Shown one piece after another: positions 51,790-58,447 of a stretch of 64,000 nt of DNA. Position 1 is the first letter of the stretch, and the number at the start of each line of letters is the position of its first letter. Made by a program: the position numbers and the translations under genes. Source of the stretch: Planctomycetota bacterium (GTDB taxonomy: Bacteria > Planctomycetota > Planctomycetia > Planctomycetales > Planctomycetaceae); assembly GCA_003388505.1 (NCBI GenBank), contig QQVO01000013.1, positions 134,896-198,895 of the forward strand. Reading direction: 5' to 3'. Below the pieces are notes generated by a model. The model was not told where the DNA came from. It did not search any database and worked only from the letters and a program-made list of their open reading frames with translations.

Positions 51790-52494
51790 TCAGCGCGTCT
51801 GGCTCTCAACTTCCACAATGTGCCCATGCAGGGTGACGTTGTCGAAGTTCCCCGTGTCGTCGAACGATCCGACTCCCACTTCACCCCACGTGAACGTCTT
51901 GTCGGTCGCCGTCATCGCCGGCTCGTCCATGTCGTCGAAGAAAACGGCAATCTCGCCCGTTTCGACGTTGCGGGTGATCCGCACGTGATGCCACTCGTCG
52001 TCCCACGGCGTGCCGTCGGTGGTCTTCGTCGAGATCTTCGTCCGGGGCGCTTCGTTGACGATGAAGATCTGGTTGGCGTGGTCGTCGGTCTCCTTGCCGA
52101 GGTGCACGTAGTAGAAGTGCGACGGATCCTGGTAGCCGAAGAACAGACACAGATCGCGGTGGCCGTAGTCTCGAATGGTCGACTGCAGATCCACGTCTAA
52201 CTGGAAGTCGCTCACAATCACGCCCCGCCGCACGGCCCGGTTGAACGGCGAACGGACCGGCGTCTGCACCTTGCTCTGTGCATGCTGGCTGAGAACGTGA
52301 TTGTCGTCCTGGCGGTCGATCCGCCAGGCGTCGGGATCGGTGGCCGCCCACTTCGAGAGATCGCCCGATTCAAAGTCTTCGGAGAAAATCAGTGGCAGGT
52401 CGGACTCAGGTTCCTCGGCAGCGAGGGCGGACACGCCGACGGAAACAAACAGCAACAGTCCGGCAGTCGCGATGGAATTCGTAGTGAGCGACAT
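51790..52494 (-). CDS. secreted DUF1080/LamG-like jelly-roll protein
   Basis: Signal peptide. ...HVRITRNVETGEIAVFFDD... and ...FDNVTLHGHIVE resemble the DUF1080 C-terminal beta-sandwich. Confidence 0.55.
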   Translation of the reverse strand: MSLTTNSIATAGLLLFVSVGVSALAAEEPESDLPLIFSEDFESGDLSKWAATDPDAWRIDRQDDNHVLSQHAQSKVQTPVRSPFNRAVRRGVIVSDFQLDVDLQSTIRDYGHRDLCLFFGYQDPSHFYYVHLGKETDDHANQIFIVNEAPRTKISTKTTDGTPWDDEWHHVRITRNVETGEIAVFFDDMDEPAMTATDKTFTWGEVGVGSFDDTGNFDNVTLHGHIVEVESQTR

Positions 52495-52777
52495 GAGACG
52501 CGTCCTTTCAGCGTTGAAAACTCGATCGGTGCGAAGGGGCAGCGTAAGGTGAATCCGTGGTCCGGTTCAACGGTCGTGAAAGATGTTTCAGCAACTTCCC
52601 TCCGCCGGAGCGTCTCGAAATTCAATCCACGAATCAGCGTAGAGCAGGTGAACCTCCAGGAGGCCCACGGAGTCCTTGCTATCGTCCATTGGAGTTGTCC
52701 GTCCAGCGGCGTGCAGGTCACCCGGCAGGGTTCGGCACTGCATGTTCCGCGAATGGGTTCTGACCGGACGACGCCAA

Positions 52778-52853
52778 TTTCGGTTAGCTCAGTGGATAGA
52801 GCACCAGATTCGAGATCTGGAAGTCACGGGTTCAAATCCCGTACCGACCACCA
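52778..52853 (+). tRNA. tRNA-like gene, 76 nt with encoded CCA: Arg-type class-I body but anticodon CGA (Ser, UCG) and two mismatches at the acceptor top (possible pseudo/aberrant or remodelled tRNA)
   Basis: Manual fold: acceptor TTTCGGT/ACCGACC (pairs 1-72 and 2-71 are T-C mismatches); D arm GCTC-AGTGGATA-GAGC with A20; anticodon arm CCAGA-TTCGAGA-TCTGG; 5-nt variable loop; T arm ACGGG-TTCAAAT-CCCGT; A73 followed by CCA. Confidence 0.55.
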
Positions 52854-53239
52854 ACACCGTCGGCTGGTAACCGACACCGACTCCCATGTCGGAGGACGCT
52901 GACTTGCAGCGTCACACAGAGCCCAAAGGAGGCAGACATCCGTTCGATCCGCCAGGATTCGCGATCGAGTGGCGAGCCGGGAGGCGTCAGCCCCCGGATC
53001 ACTCGCGATTTCGGCGCGATCCCGGCAGCACCTGGCGACGCCTTGCAGTGCGTGGATACCGCGCTTGTCGTTCATCGATCAAAGGCAGCCGACGCCGCGA
53101 GCCTGACCAACGCCGCTTCCCCCGGGAAGCCGCCGCGGAAACCTCAACGCCGACGCTGCCCGGCCCCGCTGAAGACGCTCACTCAAGCGCACTCCGCGTT
53201 CGACCGGTGTGATCAACGCATGCTCTGCTTCCGGAGGGT

Positions 53240-53773
53240 TTACTCTTCCTCAACCTCTCGGCGAACCACACCAACAAACACCGGCAGCACCCCCTCCTCG
53301 CGCAGCGACTTGGTCGGAATCGACTGGTAACGCAGCGGGACGGCGACTCTTACGTGGTCATCGGACGAGACCAGAATCCAGAACAGAGACGCGTGTGCGC
53401 ATGACTCGGGGTTCTTGTGAGAAGATCCGGTCGGAATCTCGCACTCGACTGTGGCGAATCCGTCTGCTTGAGTTGTCTCTCCGAACCAACCCTCCTTCAT
53501 CGCCCTCCAGCCCGAGTCGAAGTGGTCCTGATATTCTACGAATCCGAGACGGTCTCCCGGGATTGGTCCACGAATCAACGCGACGTGCGCACCTTCTACT
53601 GGCTCAATCGTCTCCGCATCGAAGACGTACACTCGAACCGGTACCTCGATCGATCCACTCGCCGCCCACTTGGGTTCCGGCAGCAGGAGCGCGACGAGAA
53701 TCGCCGCAATCACCACAACGACGAGCCATTCGATCCAGGTCTTCGGAATCAGGTGATTGCGGATGAGACGCAT
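53240..53773 (-). CDS. hypothetical membrane-anchored protein
   Basis: MRLIRNHLIPKTWIEWLVVVVIAAILVALLL (TM helix), then a roughly 140-aa soluble domain with no recognisable motif. Confidence 0.45.
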   Translation of the reverse strand: MRLIRNHLIPKTWIEWLVVVVIAAILVALLLPEPKWAASGSIEVPVRVYVFDAETIEPVEGAHVALIRGPIPGDRLGFVEYQDHFDSGWRAMKEGWFGETTQADGFATVECEIPTGSSHKNPESCAHASLFWILVSSDDHVRVAVPLRYQSIPTKSLREEGVLPVFVGVVRREVEEE

Positions 53774-53915
53774 CGAATCGCGACCCAAAGGAGCTAAGTG
53801 AGAACCGCTACTCGGTCTTCTATTCTACGCGAGTAGATCACCGTTGGGCGACTCCCGTCTTCAATTGTTCGAACAGACCTGTTGTGACGATCCGCGTGCG
53901 GTCATGCGAACTGCA

Positions 53916-54491
53916 TCACGCATCAATCTCATCCGGCTCGGCCAGCACGTCTTCCAGCAGGTCCGTTAGGCCGAGTTGATCGACGCACGCTCGCGCAACA
54001 GCCTCGTCATCTTCATTCGCGCCGCGCATCAGCAGTTTCACGTCGCGACGGCTCTTGTGGCTCCCCTTGCTGATCCAGACCAGTTTGGAAGCGATCAGAT
54101 CAGGTCGGGACACGATCGGAAATTGGAGGTCCGCTGTGAGATCAATCACGATCGAGCGGTCAAGCTCCCCGGGCACGAGTTCGCGTGGATAGAAGTCGAT
54201 CTTGAGCGCTTCCTGCGGATCGACCACCTGAAACATCCGCTTGCGACTCACCGCCTCTCGAATCGTCGCTGCGTCCGCCAGGCAACCGAGTTGGTGAATC
54301 GCTTCAAGGAACCGGTCCAGATGGGCCTGCAGCTGAACCGGATCGACAACCAGATCGGCGTCCTGGGTCAGCCGCGGCTCGGCGTAGTGAACGGCGACCA
54401 GACCTCCCGTGAGGTGATAACGAACGCCGCAGTCGTCCAGAATCCGGGCGAACCGTTCGAGCAACGGGAAAAACACGTCAGGAGTCAACAT
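53916..54491 (-). CDS. nucleotidyltransferase-fold protein (AbiEii/DUF1814-like minimal NTase, tentative)
   Basis: HLTGGLVAVHYAEPRLTQDADLVVD matches hG[GS]...DxD. Its start overlaps the stop of the upstream small ORF by 14 nt, which suggests translational coupling. Confidence 0.55.
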   Translation of the reverse strand: MLTPDVFFPLLERFARILDDCGVRYHLTGGLVAVHYAEPRLTQDADLVVDPVQLQAHLDRFLEAIHQLGCLADAATIREAVSRKRMFQVVDPQEALKIDFYPRELVPGELDRSIVIDLTADLQFPIVSRPDLIASKLVWISKGSHKSRRDVKLLMRGANEDDEAVARACVDQLGLTDLLEDVLAEPDEIDA

Positions 54492-54717
54492 CCTGCAGCT
54501 TCCTTTGAATCAGCTCTCGCGTCCTGCGATCGGAACCGTACTGCCGCAGGGCGACTTCCCACTTGAGCCGCTCGGCGGAAACGTCCCCCAACTCGTCCCG
54601 CAACTGCCGCGCGTACATGTCGCGCACCCAATGCAGCATCGCATGCATCCGCGCAAACTTCTCAGCGGACGTCATGGAATCGACGGCCTGGCGATAGGCT
54701 TCTTCAACAAGCGACAT
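54478..54717 (-). CDS. small helical protein (79 aa), first gene of a two-gene module with the NTase
   Basis: GAGGAG RBS with 7-nt spacing to the ATG at 54717. The protein is MSLVEEAYRQAVDSMTSAEKFARMHAMLHWVRDMYARQLRDELGD... and overlaps the downstream NTase gene. Confidence 0.45.
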   Translation of the reverse strand: MSLVEEAYRQAVDSMTSAEKFARMHAMLHWVRDMYARQLRDELGDVSAERLKWEVALRQYGSDRRTRELIQRKLQDVDS

Positions 54718-54951
54718 GCGGGGCTCCTCTCGCTGGATCGTACCAGCCAACAATCGCAGCCAAAATGTAAGGGCGAGAGGCGAACTCAGCGAGACGGAAT
54801 GGTGTCTTTCTTGGGGGTGTCGCAACGTCTTGGTTGTCCTCCGCGGGCCCTCGCAGAGGCAGTGTCACAATCTGCCCGGCTGAAGGCTATCCTTGTACCC
54901 CGCTCGCGTTTGACCAGCGCGATCAGCAATAGACTTGATTCCGGCGGGTCT

Positions 54952-55575
54952 TCACGCGACCGCGACTCGATCCAAATCTGAGAAAGGATAGTGTCCATTC
55001 TGCTTGAGCAATTGCAGCAGTTGCTCTCCCCCGTTTTCCCGCGCGTACTCCATTTCCGACCGAAAGATCTCGACCAGCGCCAACAGACCAAAGGTGTCGC
55101 CGTCGTGCAACTTGTGTCTTGCATAATCGGCGAAAACCAGACACCGACCCCCCAGCTTCTCCATGTTGGCTGGAAACTCACATGTTTCACGAGGGTTCAA
55201 CGTTGCCTGCGCACTGTAAGGCGCCATGCAATTCAAAATGGCGTTGATCGATCCGTGTGCGCGACCGAACGCGGTTGATGCATCATGCACCGAATCGAGG
55301 TCGAGAGCGTGGCGGGTAAACATTACGAGTTCGTACCGGTCGTACACGTCGTTCCGCGAGCACTCGTCGAGGTCTTCACTCAATTCCTTCGTGGCGATCG
55401 CTGTCCCTGAAAGTCCGTTCGGAAAGTAATACAGATCAAGGCCGCCGCCGATCGCATAAGGGATGATCGCGTGCATAACAACGTCATGCTCGGGTCCGAG
55501 CGACTTTTCCATGAGCGATGACTTGAGATCGTACCACTGATCGGACAGTCGTTCATCATCATTTGTGGATGCCAT
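54952..55575 (-). CDS. SUFU-like domain protein (an immunity-protein-like family), tentative
   Basis: HDVVMHAIIPYAIGGGLDLYYFPNGLSGTAIATKELSE resembles the bacterial SUFU domain. The start is at MASTNDDERL (55575) with a GAGGA RBS. Confidence 0.45.
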   Translation of the reverse strand: MASTNDDERLSDQWYDLKSSLMEKSLGPEHDVVMHAIIPYAIGGGLDLYYFPNGLSGTAIATKELSEDLDECSRNDVYDRYELVMFTRHALDLDSVHDASTAFGRAHGSINAILNCMAPYSAQATLNPRETCEFPANMEKLGGRCLVFADYARHKLHDGDTFGLLALVEIFRSEMEYARENGGEQLLQLLKQNGHYPFSDLDRVAVA

Positions 55576-55747: not shown

Positions 55748-56854
55748 ATGTTCATCCTCAAGCGTTACAAGATCCGCAGCTACGAAATGGGTCTGTCCTT
55801 CCGCGACGGCGAGTTCCGCGGTCTGCTCGGAACGGGTACGCACTGGTTCCTCGACCCGTTGGGCAAGGTCCGCGTGGACGTTGTCAGCCAGCGTGATCCG
55901 TGGCTGGTCCACGAAAAGCTCGACCTGATTGTGAAGTCAGGTGCACTGGCTGAGCGCGCAGTGGTCCTGGACCTCAAGGACCACGAGCGGGCTTTGGTCT
56001 GGATCGAGAACCGGTTCAGCCACATCCTGCCGGCCGGTCTGTACGCCTATTGGACCGGCCAAAAGGACGTCCGCGTCGAGGTGATCGATGCGCGCAACGT
56101 GCGGTTCGAGCACGAGGACCTGAAGGTCATCGCCCGCTCGACGATGGCGCAGCGCGTGCTCGACGTCTGCACGATTGGCCGTGATCACGTCGGCGTACTG
56201 TTCATCGACGGCCGATACGTCGACACGCTGGCGCCGGGTCTATACGCCTTCTGGAAGGGTCAGTCCGAAGCCCGTGTGGTCGAAGTCGACCAGCGCGAGA
56301 CGATGGTCGATATCGGCGGTCAGGACATCATGACGTCGGACAAGGTCTCGCTGCGGCTCAACGCCGTTGTGACCTACCAGGTTGCCGACGCCCGTCGGGC
56401 CGTCACGCAGACCGACGACGTTCGTCAGGCGCTCTACCGCGAAACGCAGCTCGTGCTGCGGGCCGTGGTCGGGGCCCGCGATCTCGACACGTTCCTCACG
56501 GAGAAGGACGCCGTGGCCAAGGAAGTCGAAGAGGACGTTCGGCGTCGGGCCGGCGGATTGGGTCTGGAAATTGCCTCGGTTGGCATCCGCGACGTGATCC
56601 TGCCGGGCGACATGAAGGACTTGATGAACAAGGTCACGGAGGCCAAGAAGGCAGCCGAGGCCAACCTGATCTCGCGGCGTGAGGAAACGGCCGCCATCCG
56701 CAGCCAGGCCAACACGGCCAAGCTGCTGGCGGACAACCCGGTCCTCATGCGACTGCGAGAACTGGAAGTCCTCGAGAAGATCGCCGCCAACGGCAAGCTC
56801 AACATCGTCACCGGCGAGAACGGGCTGGCCGACAAGATCGTCAACCTGCTGTGA
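55748..56854 (+). CDS. SPFH/Band-7 domain protein (stomatin/HflC-like)
   Basis: GGGAGAGG RBS. The SPFH core is present (VSLRLNAVVTYQVADARRAVTQTDDVRQALYRETQLVLRAVVGARDLDTFLTEKDAVAKEVEE) and a C-terminal coiled coil follows. Confidence 0.8.
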   Translation: MFILKRYKIRSYEMGLSFRDGEFRGLLGTGTHWFLDPLGKVRVDVVSQRDPWLVHEKLDLIVKSGALAERAVVLDLKDHERALVWIENRFSHILPAGLYAYWTGQKDVRVEVIDARNVRFEHEDLKVIARSTMAQRVLDVCTIGRDHVGVLFIDGRYVDTLAPGLYAFWKGQSEARVVEVDQRETMVDIGGQDIMTSDKVSLRLNAVVTYQVADARRAVTQTDDVRQALYRETQLVLRAVVGARDLDTFLTEKDAVAKEVEEDVRRRAGGLGLEIASVGIRDVILPGDMKDLMNKVTEAKKAAEANLISRREETAAIRSQANTAKLLADNPVLMRLRELEVLEKIAANGKLNIVTGENGLADKIVNLL

Positions 56855-57055: not shown

Positions 57056-58447
57056 TCATTCGTCAGCGAGAGCACGCAGCAACCCCGCGGCCTTATGCAA
57101 GGTCTCTGCGTACTCGGCAACCGGATCGGACTGCGCCACAATGCCGCCGCCGACGCCGCAGGAGACCCAGCCGCCGCGCTGGACGAGGGTGCGGATCAGG
57201 ATGTTGCTGTCGGCCTGACCGTCGAAGCCGGCGTAAAACAGGCTTCCGCAATACGGCCCGCGGGCCAGCCGCTCCATTTCGGTGATGATCTCCATCGCCC
57301 GAATCTTCGGCGCCCCAGTGATCGATCCCCCGGGAAACGCCGCCGCCAGCAGGTCGAAGAAATCACGGCCGTCCCGCAATTCGCCGCGCACTTCGGAGAC
57401 GAGATGCTGCACCGTTTCGTAGGTCTCGACGGCGCACAGTTGCGGGACGCGAATCGATCCCGGCTTGCAGACGCGCGAGAGATCGTTGCGGAGCAAGTCG
57501 ACGATCATCACGTTCTCGGCCCGGTCCTTGTCGCTCTCCCGCAGTTCGTCGCGGGTGAAGAGGTCGGCCTCGGGGGCCGGTCGCCGCTGGCGCGTCCCTT
57601 TGATGGGGCGCGTCTCGACCACGCCGTCGTCTAGGCGCATGAACCGCTCGGGAGAAGAACTGAGTACGGTCCAGTCCTCATGCGCGAAGAATCCGGCGAA
57701 GGGGGCCGGGTTGCAGGTTCGCAACCTGCGATAGAGTTCCAGCGGTTCATGTCGCGCACGGGTCGCCAGCCGCTGGGCGAGATTCGCCTGAAAAACATCC
57801 CCCGCCTCGATGTAGCCGATCACGGTCTCAACCGCGTCCAGGTAGCTTTCCCGCGAAAAATTGCTGAACAGACCCGGATGGCCGTCGAGTGCATGCACAG
57901 TTCCACGCGGCGTGAGCCTCTCGCTCATCGCGTCGCGGTTTGGTTTGTGCGAACGATCGCCCAGCATTCGTTTCACCGAAGCGATGCGCTTTCGCGGATC
58001 TCCGTCGAAGTCATGAGCAATCAGCCACGCCCTCCCTTCGGAGTGATCCCAGGCGAGAACCCAGTCGTAGATGCCGACGACCAGCGCGGGGATCCCGAAG
58101 TCGTCCAGTTCCGGCTGCGGAAGTCGCTCCCAGCAGCGGCCGAGTTCATACGAAAGCAGCCCCGCCGCTCCTCCCTGAAACGGCGGCAGACCGGGAATCG
58201 TCGCAGCGTGAAACTCCGCCAGCGCCTCCCGCACGGGCGCGAACGGATCGACCCCGCACTCCGCCTTCTCCAGCACGAACTGCCGCCGCGGCTCGGCGGT
58301 CAGGAACGAAGACCGTCCCAATTCGCCGACTCGCCGCGCGCTTTCCAGCAACACAACTCCCGGACGATCCGCCAGGGCCGAAAGTGACGCGAAGACATCC
58401 GGAGCGGGCGAGACTTCTTCGACAACGGGCGACGAAGTGCCGGGCAT
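57056..58447 (-). CDS. pabB: aminodeoxychorismate synthase component I (chorismate-binding enzyme family)
   Basis: The chorismate-binding core is present (LSSSPERFMRLDDG..., GSITGAPKIRAMEIITEMERLARGPYCGSLFY). PIKGT has Lys, as in PabB (TrpE has Ala). The first ATG is at 58447; a GTG at 58501 is an alternative. Confidence 0.7.
   Translation of the reverse strand: MPGTSSPVVEEVSPAPDVFASLSALADRPGVVLLESARRVGELGRSSFLTAEPRRQFVLEKAECGVDPFAPVREALAEFHAATIPGLPPFQGGAAGLLSYELGRCWERLPQPELDDFGIPALVVGIYDWVLAWDHSEGRAWLIAHDFDGDPRKRIASVKRMLGDRSHKPNRDAMSERLTPRGTVHALDGHPGLFSNFSRESYLDAVETVIGYIEAGDVFQANLAQRLATRARHEPLELYRRLRTCNPAPFAGFFAHEDWTVLSSSPERFMRLDDGVVETRPIKGTRQRRPAPEADLFTRDELRESDKDRAENVMIVDLLRNDLSRVCKPGSIRVPQLCAVETYETVQHLVSEVRGELRDGRDFFDLLAAAFPGGSITGAPKIRAMEIITEMERLARGPYCGSLFYAGFDGQADSNILIRTLVQRGGWVSCGVGGGIVAQSDPVAEYAETLHKAAGLLRALADE

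Follow-up and report, generated by a model that had tools for sequence, protein, structure and literature searches.

A tRNA-like element upstream of a slipin gene in Planctomycetota, probably a non-decoding tRNA mimic within a larger structured RNA

Domains folded like tRNA occur within larger RNAs, among them mascRNA at the 3' end of MALAT1, the Y RNA YrlA, transfer-messenger RNA (tmRNA) and the tRNA-like structures (TLS) of plant viruses. In these transcripts the tRNA-shaped module acts as a handle for recognition or processing. These mimics typically retain the acceptor/T minihelix, and their anticodon arm is usually dropped or replaced. Here we describe a tRNA-like element, denoted module T, located on the forward strand at positions 52778-52853 of a 64,000-nt stretch of Planctomycetota DNA (the window; contig QQVO01000013.1 of assembly GCA_003388505.1). 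We conclude that the element is probably a conserved, non-decoding tRNA-mimic domain, derived from a tRNA and lying within a larger structured RNA upstream of a slipin gene in Planctomycetota. We hold any specific role for it with considerably less confidence.

Several bacterial systems bear on such an element. tRNAOther, a pseudo-tRNA of Bacillus cereus, has no role in translation, is retained, and has a cellular role (PMC3399842). Endonuclease-associated long tRNA arrays have been reported, also from Planctomycetes (PMC8421152, PMC4758250), and pseudogenes occur within the arrays reported. In addition, tRNA gene fragments and remnants of attachment (att) sites are at times mis-annotated as tRNAs (PMC9897764).

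Shape and drift in the tRNA-like element

The element, TTTCGGTTAGCTCAGTGGATAGAGCACCAGATTCGAGATCTGGAAGTCACGGGTTCAAATCCCGTACCGACCACCA, is the sole tRNA that ARAGORN calls over the whole window. The call falls exactly at 52778-52853(+), and its name, 'tRNA-Ser (cga)', derives from the anticodon alone. Sequence, ARAGORN, Rfam and predicted fold all bear out the class-I cloverleaf of 76 nt with anticodon CGA, A73, an encoded CCA and the T loop TTCAAAT that the initial annotation described, and a covariance model of the family (R1, see below) recognizes the element as well. It comprises a D arm (52787-52802, loop AGTGGATA), an anticodon-type arm (52804-52820) with the loop TTCGAGA at 52809-52815 and 'CGA' at 52811-52813, a variable loop of 5 nt (AAGTC, 52821-52825), a T arm (52826-52842), and A73 with CCA at 52850-52853, all on the plus strand. 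The closing ('acceptor') stem is formed by 52780-52784 with 52843-52847, the sole paired part of the acceptor. Consistently, the match to the Rfam tRNA model RF00005, with 57.8 bits against a gathering score of 29, extends over model positions 3-68 only (52780-52847) and leaves the two top acceptor pairs outside. The minimum free energy (MFE) fold is a cloverleaf of -24.8 kcal/mol (z = -2.65) in which positions 1-2 and 71-76 are unpaired. Pairs 1-72 and 2-71, flagged earlier as mismatched, are indeed mismatched, both being T·C (U·C in RNA).

These features do not describe a normal tRNA-Ser, as had been noted. The long (class II) variable arm, G73 and the intact 7-bp acceptor stem of tRNA-Ser are all missing: the variable arm is short, the discriminator is A73, and the acceptor stem is broken at its top. 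The suggestion that A20 acts as an Arg identity element fared less well: the Arg-like, A20-type D loop GGATAGAGC is present in the window copy and others, four of the seven homologues in all, and C35, which together with A20 makes up Arg identity, is absent, position 35 being G. The window copy also carries G37, and its combination of A36 with G37 is atypical. The encoded 3' end (52843-52853) reads ...CCACCA and stems from an insertion of 7-8 nt that only the window and one homologue have in common; CCACCA is the degradation tag put on unstable tRNAs by the CCA-adding enzyme. TCTCGAA at 52613-52619, 171 nt upstream of the element, is an exact 7-nt complement of the 'anticodon' loop, a match that is probably due to chance.

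Homologues were collected from other Planctomycetota contigs; labels of the form L0xx and L2xx denote contigs or loci retrieved in this analysis. The same locus is found, 99.3-99.9% identical, in the metagenome-assembled genome (MAG) GCA_003388575.1 (Planctomycetota bacterium) and in an ENA assembly; such same-species copies are near-identical, hence uninformative. A metagenome scan with the 3' half of the element led to contig L038, whose copy resembles that of the window in its stems and 3' half, has an identical 25-nt trailer, and is likewise conserved over ~85 nt upstream and ~100 nt downstream, while differing in the loop (CTTGGAA, 'UGG'), the D loop and the 5' top. In L038 the tRNA-like gene comes after an array of odd tRNAs and a gene for an HNH endonuclease, and this HNH protein is 67-90% identical across many Planctomycetota. 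Fetching the genomic contexts of the HNH protein gave tRNA arrays of 25-38 genes and, at the 3' ends of arrays, more homologues. A search for homologues via the HNH protein in viral loci returned distant phage HNH genes only.

The family sample thus consists of seven distinct sequences, the window copy (loop TTCGAGA, 'CGA') and six homologues. Besides L038, these are L047 (equal to L048; loop CCATTAC, called 'Asn att' by ARAGORN), L049 (CTGTAAA, called 'Tyr gta' though class I), L067, a contig from a viral collection (CCGTGAA, 'His gtg'), L203 (CCGATAA, no ARAGORN call) and L212 (TTAGGGA), which was found via the slipin protein of the window, is more divergent, has no tRNA array and receives no ARAGORN call. 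A covariance model built of module T and its trailer hairpin H1 (R1) scores 93-105 bits for the window, L038, L047/L048, L049, L067/L211 and L203, with 99.5 bits for the window copy, and 75 bits for L212. Across some two dozen loci, in which over 150 array tRNAs were among those scored, no other tRNA rises above 62 bits. The best of these non-family matches, at 62 bits, is L044 835-909, a class-I tRNA with the anticodon TTA ('tRNA-Stop') inside an array; its top two acceptor pairs are mismatched too, and it lacks the flanking modules U, H1 and D described below.

Comparison of the seven sequences reveals where module T is constrained. All of them show 100% pairing in the D, anticodon and T stems, with both sides changed at pairs 27-43, 31-39 and 49-65, and none of 500 shuffles reaches the covariation score of the alignment. 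U8, A14, G18G19, G46, C48 and the T-loop TTCRA are invariant, so that the L-shaped core expected of a tRNA mimic (D and T arms, G18G19, TTCRA, U8/A14, G46/C48) is conserved. The acceptor stem is 70% paired over the seven sequences, pair 5-68 alone being invariant, and its top is unpaired in every member; L067, L203 and L212 have almost no acceptor helix, and in L212 the closing helix is essentially gone. All seven positions of the 'anticodon' loop vary, the seven 'anticodons' (CGA, UGG, AUU, GUA, GUG, GAU, AGG) are all different, and position 33 is C in three members (L047, L067, L203). The mean pairwise difference per site is 0.585 for the loop and 0.64 for the acceptor top, compared with 0 in the D stem, 0.11 in the anticodon stem and 0.09 in the T stem; columns vary at 6/28 stem positions versus 7/7 loop positions (Fisher p = 2.6e-4). 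The window and L038 alone have CCA, as part of the 7-8-nt insertion (CCACCAAC or CCACCACA); the other five lack it. The family therefore shows neither the conserved anticodon and U33 nor the 7-bp acceptor stem with 3' NCCA of a decoding tRNA. The adjacent tRNA-Cys of the arrays behaves the other way round: its GCA anticodon is invariant, and its anticodon stem covaries. In addition, module T is 93% identical between L067 and L203, whereas the sequence of the neighbouring U hairpin is entirely different.

Judged from this alignment, selection is holding the tRNA shape and not the adaptor functions. Since neither the loop and the acceptor top nor the discriminator and CCA are held in place, the window copy owes its CGA, A73 and A20 to accidents of its lineage; they are not identity elements.

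An alternative that we consider unlikely is a plain pseudogene, namely a dead Pro- or Arg-derived tRNA or the last gene of an array undergoing neutral decay, beside flanking modules that are a separate matter, for example a leader of the slipin gene. Decay would produce the eroded acceptor top, the drifting anticodon, the loss of CCA in 5/7 and the two members that ARAGORN does not call (L203 and L212), and the Pro-like loop context (NGG/NGA with G37 or A38) of the window, L212 and L038 suggests, on sequence, a tRNA ancestor. That ancestor may have been of either isotype, three members being Pro-like in the loop and four Arg-like in the D loop. Neutral decay would strike the stems too, whereas the stems are fully paired with compensatory changes beside a near-saturated loop and acceptor top, the elbow nucleotides are invariant, and module T stays alike in L067 and L203 next to a wholly different U hairpin. 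Intact, compensated stems next to such a loop therefore do not represent neutral decay, and the earlier idea of a decaying tRNA-Arg copy is not favoured either.

The same data make it highly improbable that the element is a functional, unusual tRNA that reads UCG, charged with Ser, Arg or another amino acid, and serves mistranslation or recoding, as the initial annotation had also considered. In its favour, the window sequence scores well with the Rfam tRNA model and combines U33 and a loop of 7 nt with A73 and an encoded CCA, and class-I CGA tRNAs do exist, as 16 unrelated, sporadic cases in the GTDB species genomes scanned; none of them is from a planctomycete. Against it stand the two mismatches at the acceptor top, the absence of the long variable arm, G73 and C35 alike, and the atypical A36-G37 combination, together with orthologues at the same locus that show seven anticodons, C33 in three members and, in most, neither acceptor stem nor CCA. 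Moreover, the relatives have normal class-II tRNA-Ser(CGA) genes, long-arm genes of 86-91 nt that are present in their arrays.

Two tRNAs with anticodon CGA from other bacteria deserve a remark of their own. L016 313-389, a class-I tRNA with a short variable arm from a Patescibacteria MAG, has a perfect acceptor stem (GGAGATG/CATCTCC), G73 and an encoded CCA, adjoins tRNA-Glu, and could be a genuine short-arm tRNA-Ser in a bacterium of the candidate phyla radiation. L012 2436-2512, from a Comamonadaceae MAG, combines a Pro-type acceptor (CGGGGTG...CACCCCG-A-CCA) with the loop TTCGAGA 0.7 kb from tRNA-Pro(CGG), and looks like a G36A anticodon mutant of tRNA-Pro.

Structured modules around the element

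The element had been described as sitting alone in a 745-bp noncoding stretch. The interval, 52495-53239, is gene-free, but the element is not alone in it: conserved structured RNA modules occupy most of the interval. Modules U, H1 and D flank module T in all seven genomes, and each of them covaries in the alignments; the whole unit measures ~550 nt.

Module U (52697..52769, plus strand) is an irregular hairpin upstream of module T that is conserved in L038, L047, L049, L067, L203 and L212. Its closing stem pairs GTCCG (52697-52701) with CGGAC (52765-52769) and covaries, with sequences, read by eye, of GTCCG/CGGAC, TCGCT/AGCGA and CAGCC/GGCTG. Within it lie the conserved core CCAGCGGCG (52703-52711), a variable, covarying hairpin (52712-52742) and the strand TGTTCCGCGAATGG (52743-52756). 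The conserved strands of the module are CCAGCGGCG and GTTCCGnnnATGG, and the apex varies in sequence and covaries. RNAalifold predicts 14 pairs for U, 6 of them compensatory.

Downstream of module T, hairpin H1 (52859..52875, plus strand; GTCGG-CTGGTAA-CCGAC) consists of a 5-bp stem and a 7-nt loop, with an invariant ACCG ahead of it. H1 is present in 7/7 members, with stems such as GTCGG/CCGAC, GCGAG/CTCGC, GCAGG/CCTGC, GCAAGC/GCTTGC and GTTGG/CCAAC; 94% of the cells are paired, and three pairs have both sides changed. It is followed on the same strand by two hairpins of the MFE fold, H2 (52877-52892, CCGAC-TCCCAT-GTCGG), which is lineage-specific, and H3 (52895-52913, GACGCTG-ACTTG-CAGCGTC). 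Together H2 and H3 (52877..52913) form lineage-variable spacer hairpins: L038 lacks H2, and counterparts of H3 with other sequences are found in L038, L047 and L049.

Module D (52921..53239, plus strand), identified by its conserved blocks and by RNAalifold, is a closed domain of ~320 nt. Its closing helix joins 52927-52949 with 53211-53233, and the conserved block GTTCGATCCGCC lies at 52942-52953. Further inside, block D2 (53024-53062) pairs with block D3 (53182-53200) through a helix of 53045-53056 with 53183-53194. The 3' strand of D overlaps a terminator-like hairpin at 53223-53236. RNAalifold predicts 80 pairs for D, 31 of which have changes on both sides; 86.5% of the cells are paired, whereas sliding the partners by 1-3 columns lowers the share to 30-48%, and 0/500 shuffles reach the observed values. 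The MFE fold of window 52690-53245 (-246.7 kcal/mol, z = -4.2) recovers the closing helix of D.

Searched with Rfam at the gathering threshold and at E <= 10, the unit of the window, L038, L048, L047 and L203 yielded tRNA only, plus matches at chance level. YrlA and tmRNA gave no significant match in Rfam, and mascRNA and Tymo_tRNA-like gave weak, sub-threshold matches only. Protein coding was also considered, since two frames run across the conserved blocks, an open reading frame (ORF) at 52886-53212(+) and one on the minus strand (GIHALQG..CC), and was rejected: the frames and their extents are not kept in L047, L049 and L203, and the stretches that vary fold as covarying hairpins.

The most conserved block of D, AGTGCGTGGATACCGC at window 53045-53062, resembles the T-box consensus, which is AGGGUGGNACCGCG. 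A T-box reading of D2 was rejected: Rfam gave no match to RF00230 at E <= 10, the UGG is not kept in L047 (where the GUGGAUACCGC block reads GCAGAUACCGC), and the block pairs with D3. A kissing-loop partner was rejected as well: the 7-mer complement of the loop is found in the window only, and five further loci that were tested have none of >=6 nt. An imperfect direct repeat, CG(G/T)TCGATCCGCCAGG..., occurs at window 52313-52339 and 52941-52967 with 23/27 identical positions (also at 58361-58376); the first copy lies in a DUF1080-like gene and the second in block D1b of the RNA unit, and the repeat is possibly due to chance.

The flanking modules also bear on the proposal that the element is an attL/attR chimera, in which integration into a tRNA gene replaced the 5' part and ACCGACACCGAC was left as an att core. 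The mismatches are indeed limited to the 5' acceptor top, and a gene block encoding an AbiEii toxin was evidently inserted ~390 bp downstream. The partial direct repeat reported in the 3' flank is there, ACCGACACCGAC lying at 52870-52881, and it is no att remnant: it is made up of the 3' strand of H1 and the 5' strand of H2, and H1 covaries in seven genomes. A second copy of the tRNA 3' half is not found in the 64 kb at <=3 mismatches, generic direct repeats in the window are short and chance-like, none meaningful, the called neighbours include no integrase, and both flanks are orthologous to loci elsewhere; the gene block, in turn, was inserted after module D and not in the tRNA-like element. 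We regard a chimera as very improbable indeed. A phage origin was rejected too, as blastn against phage genomes gave generic tRNA similarity only, and pattern scans of viral contigs for the flanks of the element returned nothing, or an unrelated 18-mer.

The slipin locus and its surroundings

The genes flanking the unit in the window encode a DUF1080-like protein, DUF1559 proteins and slipin. The slipin gene (Band_7/SPFH; 55748..56854, plus strand) is named 'slipin family protein' by NCBI and matches Pfam Band_7 with E = 2.9e-30. In L047, L203, L067/L211 and L212, slipin lies on the strand of D and starts no more than ~200 nt past its end; the L049 gene calls are broken, probably by assembly errors.

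The element stands directly 3' of a tRNA array with an embedded HNH gene in L038, L047, L049, L067 and L203. The homologues merely abut these arrays and are not members of them, membership of a long array being defined by at least 20 dense, co-oriented tRNA genes, and the element scores above its array neighbours on the general tRNA model. The unit occurs without any array in the window, which has a single tRNA in 64 kb, and in L212, which has no tRNA within 5.6 kb; conversely, it was not found at arrays whose next gene is not slipin (L044, L207). Since the unit is present without an array in these two loci, and arrays not followed by slipin lack it, the unit belongs with the slipin locus.

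In the window, a block of 2.3 kb on the minus strand (53240-55575), missing from the orthologous loci, appears to have been inserted between D and slipin. It holds genes for a hypothetical protein (177-182 aa), an AbiEii/DUF1814 nucleotidyltransferase toxin (53916-54491; Pfam AbiEii E = 8.5e-9), a small ORF that overlaps the toxin gene and is likely its antitoxin, and a SUFU-like protein. MenT toxins modify tRNA 3' ends, and by analogy the tRNA-like RNA might be a decoy or target of the AbiEii toxin encoded 1.06 kb downstream of it, a possibility we consider negligible, as no AbiEii gene adjoins the element in L047, L049, L203, L067/L211 or L212, so that the adjacency is a species-specific insertion, which argues against a functional link.

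The arrays themselves comprise 25-38 tRNA genes in ~7 kb (L044 1-7700; L047 3950-10330; L049 4980-9120; L203 1080-6190; L205; L206; L207). In planctomycete arrays the conserved HNH endonuclease gene (~194 aa) always comes after tRNA-His; it also occurs without an array in L045 and L204. The Rfam tRNA model gives many array tRNAs low scores (31-52 bits), and some called Arg or Gly measure 91-98 nt (L038 556-653; L067 3049-3142; L203 5648-5839), which suggests insertions or intron-like segments in class-I tRNAs. After one array we also noticed a gene with a Ro60-type vWA domain (L207 5402-5926) and, after the HNH gene, a gene for a 23S_rRNA_IVP/bAvd-like four-helix bundle (L047 8608-8967).

A candidate tRNA mimic and its place among known systems

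We infer that the RNA would be neither aminoacylated nor used on the ribosome. Module T may be transcribed as part of a longer plus-strand RNA that contains U, T, H1 and D, and would act as a tRNA mimic inside this transcript. In one version of its role, the module would be a handle, read via its elbow by enzymes that process or modify tRNAs, and would mark or cut the precursor where an upstream tRNA operon gives way to the structured RNA or slipin mRNA that follows. In the other, it would be a rigid scaffold on which the larger RNA folds. A processing or recognition handle fits the position of the element between array and slipin, and we prefer it to the scaffold. The preference is weak, since some members have nearly lost the acceptor helix required by RNase P.

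More tentatively, U, T, H1 and D may make up one large (~550-nt), hitherto undescribed structured noncoding RNA of Planctomycetota with a built-in tRNA mimic. Under this broader proposal, whose chance of being right is substantial though less than even, the 'anticodon' loop would be functionally irrelevant, and the RNA would have a connection with the expression of slipin, with the 3' end of long tRNA operons, or with both.

Some observations weigh against a tRNA mimic embedded in a larger RNA. The sample is limited to seven distinct sequences, some of them from error-prone long-read assemblies. The D stem and most pairs of the anticodon and T stems are invariant and not covarying, which leaves room, in principle, for some of the conservation to operate at the DNA level. 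With almost no acceptor helix, L067, L203 and L212 speak against recognition by RNase P, the most obvious mechanism. The window copy and L038 retain CCA and 5-6 acceptor pairs, which makes residual tRNA-like processing or charging possible there. Finally, the unit of the window, whether a cis-leader or a stand-alone RNA, is cut off from slipin by the 2.3-kb insertion.

An annotation as tRNA-Ser(CGA) is thus unwarranted, and nothing in the present data supports a mistranslating Ser or Arg tRNA. As a case in evolution, the element presents a tRNA body kept for its shape while anticodon, U33, acceptor end and CCA drift. The unit, a covarying structure of ~550 nt that has no Rfam family, is a candidate new RNA in a phylum whose noncoding RNAs are poorly charted. 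If the proposal is correct, it would constitute a new class of RNA containing a tRNA mimic, and not a leader next to an unrelated relic, and it would provide a handle on the termination or processing of long tRNA arrays and on the regulation of the widespread slipin gene.

The proposed mimic shares with tRNAOther, as that RNA is described, that it is a bacterial tRNA-like gene with non-canonical features, apparently non-translational and yet kept. tRNAOther stands alone beside a pathogenicity island, whereas this element is set among conserved structured modules, has an anticodon loop that is free across species and, in most members, no acceptor stem. It adjoins a long tRNA array in five loci, yet is not a member of the array. 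Like the att remnants and gene fragments that are annotated as tRNAs, it is a non-canonical tRNA call near inserted DNA; unlike them, it has a full cloverleaf core, no duplicated half and conserved sequence on both flanks. With mascRNA, YrlA, tmRNA and the plant-virus TLS it would have in common a tRNA module whose shape (elbow and T arm) is kept within a transcript that is not a tRNA and whose decoding features are dispensable. Unlike these mimics, it retains the anticodon arm, with a fixed stem and a free loop, and erodes the acceptor helix.

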